Assembly: GCF_003334355.1 (NCBI RefSeq) | Contig: NZ_QOWP01000050.1 | From: Escherichia coli | GTDB lineage: Bacteria; Pseudomonadota; Gammaproteobacteria; Enterobacterales; Enterobacteriaceae | DNA: 15,734 bases | Reading direction: 5' to 3' (one strand) | Shown here: positions 13,917 through 14,134 of the stretch, one piece after another | Layout: each line of letters opens with the position of its first letter | Position numbering within the stretch: position 1 is the stretch's first letter | Program-made: the position numbers and the translations under genes | The notes under the pieces: generated by a model | Database searches by the model: none | What the model was told of the DNA's origin: nothing | What the model saw: only the letters and a program-made list of their open reading frames with translations

Positions 13917-14134
13917 CTCAATCCTTTAGGCTTGCATGTTATCTTCAGCCCAGGATGATTCTTAAATCAGCTATTTCCGCTGACTCTCTGCTCGCTAAGG
14001 ATGCTTTTAGGGCATCCTTTCATTTACACTTTTTACGAAATCATGGGATCACTAACAAAATATCGCTTGTCAGTTATATTGTATGGCAGGAAAGATATGC
14101 GACTGATATTACAGATCCCCAAAGTGGAGAGTTT

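Follow-up and report, generated by a model that had tools for sequence, protein, structure and literature searches.

In Escherichia coli, rcnA and rcnB follow one another on the same strand, and the literature treats rcnAB as one unit of an 'rcnR-rcnAB divergon'. An earlier note on this DNA had remarked that the spacer between the two genes is unusually long for a co-transcribed pair. It had also pointed to a stable hairpin in the spacer as a possible partial terminator or attenuator, or an RNA processing or stability element, that could set the ratio of the two products. The locus therefore raises two questions: why the genes are so far apart, and what the hairpin between them does. We addressed both with the whole stretch of DNA that was analyzed (hereafter the window; 15,734 nt), genomes of relatives, and complete genomes of E. 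coli.

The rcnA-rcnB locus

The window is E. coli K-12-like and its rcnA-rcnB spacer is 100% identical to that of K-12 strains; adding 2,172,825 to a window coordinate gives the MG1655 coordinate. From the rcnA stop (13916) to the rcnB ATG (14135), the spacer measures 218 bp, the length that had been reported. The perfect 8-bp stem around a TTTTAGG loop is present exactly as described, as is the interrupted T-rich tail (table 1). The sequence assigned to positions 13997-14020 is correct but the end is off by one: the hairpin ends at 14019 and base 14020 already belongs to the tail, as its first T.

The divergent rcnR-rcnA promoter has two RcnR operator repeats, TACTGGGGGGTAGTA and TACTGGGGGGGAGTA, at 13020-13034 and 13040-13054, both of which fit the published TACT-G6-N-AGTA motif. 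Two variants were seen in or next to rcnA. RcnA of the O157 type is 7 residues longer (281 vs. 274 aa; locus L002, O157:H7, 626-1471), probably in the histidine-rich loop. Strain CMZE087 (locus L003, 1501-1724) has a 5-bp insertion, apparently a duplication of CTTCA, just 3' of the rcnA stop.

Table 1. Features of the rcnA-rcnB region, in window coordinates
Feature	Position	Strand	Basis or remark
thiM	11688-12476	minus	
TPP riboswitch of thiM	12511-12607	minus	Rfam scan
rcnR-rcnA segment, Escherichia-specific, ~1.27 kb	about 12662-13935		local alignments to Salmonella and Citrobacter
rcnR	12699-12971	minus	
rcnA coding sequence	13092-13916	plus	ORF list; 100% match to RcnA; b2106 in MG1655
Last ~19 bp of the putative insertion	13917-13935	plus	local alignments
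RcsB-box homologue CAGGATGATTCTTA	13951-13964	plus	alignments; predicted box of Salmonella rcnB
Hairpin left arm AAGGATGC	13997-14004	plus	
Hairpin loop TTTTAGG	14005-14011	plus	most variable part among Escherichia alleles
Hairpin right arm GCATCCTT	14012-14019	plus	in the spacer of the inferred rcnB promoter
T-rich tail TCATTTACACTTTTT	14020-14034	plus	
Invariant promoter block containing the T-rich tail	14020-14041	plus	cross-genus conservation
Candidate -10, TACACT	14025-14030	plus	implied by the inferred start site
rcnB 5' leader (inferred), 97 nt	14038-14134	plus	
Sigma-70-like CTAACA-17-TATATT	14052-14080	plus	in all four Escherichia alleles; absent from Salmonella and Citrobacter
Conserved leader block AACAAAATATCGCTTGTCAG	14054-14073	plus	deeply conserved across genera
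Shine-Dalgarno GGAG	14126-14129	plus	
rcnB (yohN) coding sequence	14135-14473	plus	ORF list
rcnB/yehA convergent terminator	14480-14498		canonical hairpin with 8-bp stem; internal comparator
yehA	14555-15589	minus	

Gene Order Upstream of rcnB

The arrangement of rcnA upstream of rcnB is restricted to Escherichia. A search for RcnB with one genome per species yielded 28 loci, and the 2.5 kb upstream of rcnB include rcnA in just two of them, from E. albertii and a divergent E. coli. All 26 loci from outside Escherichia, among them those of Salmonella, Citrobacter, Enterobacter, Klebsiella, Kluyvera, Lelliottia, and Leclercia, lack rcnA over this distance. In Salmonella and Citrobacter, rcnB directly adjoins the thiMD leader. 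That gene order differs in Salmonella has been published before, and the history of rcnB seen here agrees with that report (PMC7689651).

Alignments bracket the segment that differs. On the left, homology ends at the -35 element of thiM, GTTGTAAA (12654-12661), and on the right, Salmonella is again homologous from 13936 onward; BLAST homology of the E. coli spacer to Citrobacter or Salmonella begins at 14017-14019, the last bases of the hairpin. In Escherichia, rcnR-rcnA looks like an insertion between the back-to-back promoters of thiM and rcnB that extends only ~37 bp past the stop codon of rcnR and ~20 bp past that of rcnA. Judged from these alignments, the DNA from ~13936 to 14134, hairpin site included, descends from the old intergenic region of thiM and rcnB. 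Because only ~20 bp of the insertion remain past the rcnA stop, too few for a terminator, the module brought none with it, and for the same reason read-through past rcnA is predicted to be the default state.

A Candidate Promoter of rcnB inside the Spacer

In relatives without rcnA upstream, rcnB stands alone behind conserved DNA. The block TTTACACTTTTTACGAAA (14023-14040) does not differ among 10 loci from three genera, Escherichia, Salmonella, and Citrobacter; Kluyvera, Pseudocitrobacter, and Enterobacter retain its core, TTACAYTTTTTA. In Salmonella Typhimurium SL1344, transcription of rcnB starts 100 nt 5' of the ATG, with a predicted RcsB box, TCAGATAGTTCTCA, at -86 to -72, and the log2 change between wild-type RcsB and an rcsB deletion is +0.75 (PMC7913699 Table 2; start site positions from SalCom). 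The Salmonella locus in our comparison (L006) has the same box at the same distance of 186 nt to the ATG. Because this geometry is conserved, the start site of rcnB in E. coli is predicted to be A14038, directly 3' of TTTTTACG, and the hairpin would occupy -41 to -19 of the promoter. The -35-like TTGCCG of Citrobacter aligns with ATGCTT (14001-14006) of E. coli, 18 bp from TACACT, and the ATGC of the left arm of the hairpin overlaps this hexamer. The E. coli homologue of the RcsB box has a single mismatch (first T to C) to TN(G/A)GAN4TCTNA and would be located at about -87 to -74 of the predicted start site.

Published expression data fit these assignments. In E. coli, a LolCDE inhibitor increases rcnB 4.1-fold and rcnA is not listed, disruption of rcsB in O157:H7 changes rcnB by -1.61-fold, and an EcoCyc-derived table has RpoE, beside RcnR and Fur, for rcnB. 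Expression of rcnB independently of rcnA in E. coli is in agreement with rcnB having its own promoter, and the RcsB-box homologue with reports that rcnB responds to Rcs and envelope stress without rcnA.

These findings change how two features singled out by the earlier note are to be read. The rcnA-rcnB gap is not an oddity of an operon; rcnB was ancestrally a stand-alone gene, and the gap is long because its own older promoter and a leader of ~97 nt fill the 218 bp. Likewise, the T-rich tract is not a degenerate U-tract but an invariant promoter block that is older than the hairpin. Since the block is kept in genera without rcnA upstream, promoter conservation, not selection for termination, explains it.

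The spacer also contains other signals and open frames. The sigma-70-like CTAACA-17-TATATT could be a second, lineage-specific promoter of rcnB, with the ancestral -35 TTGCCG having decayed to ATGCTT. The best match to a sigma-E promoter (8 of 12 positions; GGATCAC-17-TCAGT at 14046/14070) overlaps AACAAAATATCGCTTGTCAG and is not convincing. A frame from 13955 to 14473 is open across most of the spacer and would extend rcnB in frame at its 5' end. Another, 14001-14138 (45 codons), starts inside the stem, has a TGA that overlaps the rcnB ATG, and is open in all four Escherichia alleles. It is closed in other genera, 7 of its 45 residues differ between K-12 and E. albertii, and because nearly every nucleotide change alters the protein, we reject it as coding. 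Lastly, C/U-rich tracts on either side of the hairpin, at 13983-13992 and 14027-14032, can pair, in read-through RNA only, with the ribosome-binding region of rcnB, AAAGUGGAGAG (14121-14131). The predicted unpaired probability of the binding site is 0.002 in the long RNA versus 0.45 in the short RNA, a difference that is not significant since 15% of shuffled upstream sequences do equally well.

Structure and Distribution of the Hairpin

The hairpin is stable when folded as RNA, as had been expected. The 23-mer has a folding energy of -11.5 kcal/mol and a z-score of -3.6 (0 of 200 shuffles as stable) and is the dominant local structure in contexts of 51, 81, and 234 nt. Two U.G pairs extend the eight perfect pairs, four of which are G-C, to a total of 10 pairs closed by a 3-nt UUA loop. 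The hairpin is located 80 nt 3' of the rcnA stop and has a T-rich 3' flank on the plus strand only.

The occurrence of such a hairpin is less telling than its stability. Perfect hairpins of at least 8 bp with loops of 3-10 nt are present in 2.8% of dinucleotide shuffles of the 218-bp spacer, and the whole window has three such sites versus 2.5 ± 2.1 expected from shuffles. Because the earlier note had come from a scan of the whole window, occurrence alone is not significant and a chance origin is excluded just moderately. The hairpin is single-copy in ~5,360 of 5,426 complete E. coli genomes (37-nt query, E <= 10; median of one place per genome across 5,362 genomes), which rules out a repeat element of the REP/BIME kind or similar. 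An Rfam scan of 12400-15000 (E <= 10) reported only the TPP riboswitch of thiM above threshold, and the hairpin had no match.

The hairpin exists only in Escherichia. Predicted energies are -12.0 kcal/mol for the K-12 type, -11.1 kcal/mol for the divergent E. coli (SCPM-O-B-8794), -12.2 kcal/mol for E. albertii, and -7.0 kcal/mol for the O157 type, which forms seven pairs with a 9-nt loop. Orthologous positions in Salmonella and three Citrobacter range from 0 to -4.2 kcal/mol and fold no better than shuffles.

Comparison with Intrinsic Terminators

As expected of an intrinsic terminator, the hairpin is stable, includes G-C pairs in its stem, and follows a gene on the strand that is transcribed. 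Its scores are not those of a terminator. We re-implemented a d'Aubenton-Carafa type discriminant for hairpin plus T-tail with current energy parameters and scanned both strands of the window, in which four clear gene-end terminators score +5.3 to +40.9. The discriminant of the hairpin is negative for all three stem definitions: -35.8 for the full 8-bp stem (tail score 1.80), -22.6 for a 7-bp stem, and -14.1 for a 6-bp core, GGAUGC/GCAUCC (tail UUUCAUUU, tail score 3.14). The tail directly after the full stem, UCAUUUAC, has four U in eight positions where the criterion is at least five, and the tail after the 6-bp core has six in eight. With the 6-bp core, the hairpin ranks 10th among 573 hairpin-plus-tail candidates in the window, in the company of coding-sequence hits. 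A consensus terminator scan of the window calls only the rcnB/yehA terminator and leaves the hairpin uncalled.

That terminator offers an internal comparison. Like the hairpin, it is intergenic and has a perfect 8-bp stem and a short loop, but it has six G-C pairs, a 3-nt loop, a run of seven T, and a call by the scan (-13.9 to -15.2 kcal/mol; discriminant of +5.3 on the minus strand). Its sequence is CCCCCTCA/TCA/TGAGGGGG, with a proper T run on the yehA (minus) side only, so termination of rcnB on the plus strand would rely on a hairpin without a U-tract.

Measured against intrinsic terminators and leaky attenuators within operons in general, the hairpin is similar in having 8-10 pairs and -11.5 kcal/mol on the sense strand past a stop codon, followed by T-rich sequence, and in that read-through into the next gene is known. 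It differs in that its U-tract is interrupted (4/8), its discriminant is negative, and only four of eight stem pairs are G-C; moreover, the T-rich sequence after it belongs to a conserved promoter and is not a U-tract dedicated to termination. On these sequence grounds, the hairpin can only be a weak, leaky terminator. It is most like a weak intrinsic terminator, but because the discriminant is negative and the U-tract borderline, we do not file it as an established member of the family. The proposal of a partial terminator or attenuator thus holds as the most plausible role at the RNA level, given the strand and the distance from the rcnA stop, and falls short in that the element is below threshold by both the scan and the discriminant. 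Any termination must be partial because read-through into rcnB is accepted in the literature. Supplements of 3'-end, start-site, and long-read studies were searched and no entry for rcnA or rcnB was found in them.

A Possible Leaky Stop to Read-through from rcnA

We suggest, with a probability of about 0.35, that the hairpin is a leaky terminator or insulator that acts on read-through from rcnA. The stem-loop would have arisen inside the older rcnB promoter in the lineage in which the terminator-less rcnR-rcnA was inserted upstream. Its transcription would require RNA polymerase that started at the RcnR-controlled rcnA promoter, which is derepressed by nickel or cobalt, to continue beyond the rcnA stop. 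In the read-through RNA, the hairpin is predicted to fold directly before the pre-existing T-rich promoter sequence, giving UUUCAUUUACACUUUUU, and the two together may stop transcription intrinsically but weakly, as a leaky terminator or insulator. Some rcnA transcripts would end around 14026-14030 and the remainder would continue into rcnB. In consequence, rcnB would still be induced by metal, less strongly than rcnA, and would additionally be supplied by its own envelope-stress-responsive promoter in the spacer.

Several observations are consistent with a leaky terminator. The fold is stable and local in every context tested and in each of the four Escherichia alleles, and the T-rich flank is on the appropriate strand only. 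With the hairpin upstream of the predicted rcnB start site, the order of elements is the usual one of gene, terminator, promoter, and gene. Read-through for it to act on would be the default given where the insertion ends, the 6-bp core has a tail with 6/8 U and a high rank among candidates, and variation is mostly compatible with RNA pairing (see below). Under palladium stress, rcnA is up 6.2-fold and rcnB 3.7-fold, which is compatible with partial termination between them; however, basal transcription from its own promoter would equally lower the fold-change of rcnB.

Other observations argue against it. The hairpin is uncalled by the consensus scan and its negative discriminants are like those of chance hits in coding sequence. 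The RNA-DNA hybrid after the full stem (UCAUUUACA) includes C and A and is not especially weak, and the T tract is already accounted for by promoter conservation. Any constraint must be weak, since 332 genomes have the O157-type allele at -7 kcal/mol. The literature treats rcnAB as one unit, and a compensatory double substitution was not found. At the mirror junction, between rcnR and thiM, no hairpin has evolved according to the discriminant scan.

In a more specific version of this reading, which we regard as improbable, the terminator or insulator arose de novo: once rcnR-rcnA had landed in the ancestor of Escherichia, a small number of base changes to the -35 and spacer of rcnB's promoter made the stem. 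The invariant T-rich -10 and start-site region of the promoter would have been reused as the U-tract of the new stem, so that one 45-bp stretch would be both a leaky stop for upstream transcription and a remodeled promoter.

Variation in the Hairpin and Alternative Explanations

Across positions 13996-14025, 4,898 genomes are identical to the window, 332 have the O157-type allele, and 130 have one SNP (88 with G14011A, 34 with C14016T, and 8 not sampled). Most changes are compatible with pairing in RNA. G14011A is in the loop or converts a U.G to a U-A pair, C14016T converts a G-C to a G.U pair, and A13997G, found in the O157 type and E. albertii, also leaves a G.U pair. Pair-breaking changes are confined to the two ends of the stem, namely its terminal pair (A13997T) and its loop-closing pair (G14012A). 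Those in the interior of the stem preserve wobble pairing, and the loop (14009-14011) and 5' flank vary freely between alleles. No compensatory double substitutions were found among the Escherichia alleles compared (two major and two minor SNP alleles of E. coli, one divergent E. coli genome, and E. albertii); changes are single-sided, and diversity is too low for power. Overall, the variation leans toward a constraint at the level of RNA over a strict DNA dyad, with few events on a shallow tree.

Structural variants also affect the spacer. In isolate 30345_1#220, a 65-bp deletion (14012-14076) removed the right arm, the TACACT/start-site block, and the TTGTCA block, leaving rcnB 153 bp after rcnA and presumably dependent on rcnA read-through alone. 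Strains M70 and HCP30S3_I2 have independent IS1 insertions with loss of adjacent DNA (rcnB and beyond) and junctions inside the hairpin at 14006/14007 and 14017/14018, 11 bp apart. Of ~15 structural variants of the spacer, at least three have a breakpoint inside the 23-bp hairpin versus 1.6 expected, which is not significant, and the search was hairpin-centered.

The hairpin may instead be a functionless palindrome that formed by chance in fast-evolving, old thiM-rcnB intergenic DNA, with nothing but recent shared ancestry and the overlapping rcnB promoter to preserve it in Escherichia. We consider this possible, if on balance doubtful. It would account for the number of 8-bp hairpins in the window being that of shuffles and their presence in 2.8% of shuffled spacers, for a terminator score like those of coding-sequence hits, for the lack of compensatory changes, and for the weakened O157-type allele. 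It also suits the isolate that lost the right arm and promoter block and the two strains that lost the region through IS1. Furthermore, constraint on 16 stem positions could not be expected to show between species as close as E. coli and E. albertii. Conversely, fold z-scores are -3.6 to -6.3 in three of the four alleles, the stem core varies much less than the loop and 5' flank, and its interior changes preserve wobble pairing. The palindrome is also placed as a functional element would be, right after a gene without a terminator and on the strand with the T-rich flank.

A third explanation retains a role in RNA and dispenses with termination. The RNA would be ended downstream, by Rho in the 218-nt untranslated spacer or by an endonuclease, and then trimmed by 3'-to-5' exonucleases back to the hairpin, which would protect or process the 3' end and stabilize an rcnA-only mRNA. 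In E. coli, Rho-dependent termination is commonly followed by trimming of the 3' end to a stem-loop. This role would suit a stable hairpin that is 80 nt past a stop codon and has a poor U-tract, and the long untranslated spacer and the changes compatible with RNA pairing also agree with it. In 78-nt windows upstream of and across the hairpin, C moderately exceeds G, with a ratio of up to 1.67, but this is under the 95th percentile of the window (1.84) and hence there is no clear Rho loading site near the hairpin, which lends no support either way to Rho. The weak O157-type allele also argues against protection, and we judge the explanation unlikely to be correct. Stem-loops of the REP/BIME type that stabilize mRNA are similar palindromes between co-directional genes, and like them the hairpin could block 3' exonucleases and set a gene ratio. 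Unlike them, it is single-copy, 23 nt long, and not G+C-rich, and it has neither a REP consensus nor an Rfam match.

Lastly, the hairpin may act as DNA, a dyad of 8+8 bp with a 7-bp spacer that is either an operator for an Escherichia-specific regulator or a remodeling of the -35 and spacer that changed the strength of the autonomous rcnB promoter. The dyad overlaps ATGCTT, the counterpart of the Citrobacter TTGCCG at 18 bp from TACACT, and rcnB is regulated independently of rcnA, as the data on the LolCDE inhibitor, rcsB in O157, and the RpoE listing suggest. For NtrC, genomic SELEX gave a peak in the rcnA/rcnB spacer. Against this, C14016T and the O157-type allele break the symmetry of the DNA and keep RNA pairing, the dyad is missing from every other genus that shares the promoter, and we could not match it to a known motif. 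NtrC itself recognizes TGCACY-N5-GGTGCA, and 13917-14134 holds no site with three or fewer mismatches to this consensus; a resemblance of the dyad to the NsrR motif fails on spacing. Dyad operators are also found in promoter spacers among MerR-family sites, one example being the CueR box, whose half-sites are 7 bp apart. The hairpin is comparable in being a perfect dyad with a gap of 7 bp and in its location between the -35 and -10 regions of the predicted promoter of a metal-related periplasmic protein. It differs in half-site sequence, in being centered at about -30 rather than -24, in lacking a TTGACA-like -35 with a 19-20-bp spacer, and in having population variants that break its symmetry. 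Action as DNA is thus an explanation to which we give little credence.

Implications for rcnB Regulation

RcnB restrains RcnA-dependent efflux of nickel and cobalt, and therefore the RcnA:RcnB ratio affects metal tolerance. The spacer is best described as an old, independent, and probably envelope-stress-responsive promoter of rcnB with a lineage-specific hairpin on top. Promoter and hairpin together would explain why rcnB responds to Rcs-type stress without rcnA, why its induction by metal is weaker, and why the gap is long. What is new is small: the placement of the hairpin within the conserved, putative promoter of rcnB and its restriction to Escherichia. If the insulator arose de novo from promoter sequence, rcnB, previously controlled by envelope stress alone, would have come under metal control as well, and the RcnA:RcnB ratio would be set in this way. 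Knowledge of the rcn system is unchanged whether or not the hairpin terminates transcription. If it does not, it would be an ordinary palindrome; if it does, it would be a small, clean example of an insulator evolving after the insertion of a gene upstream.
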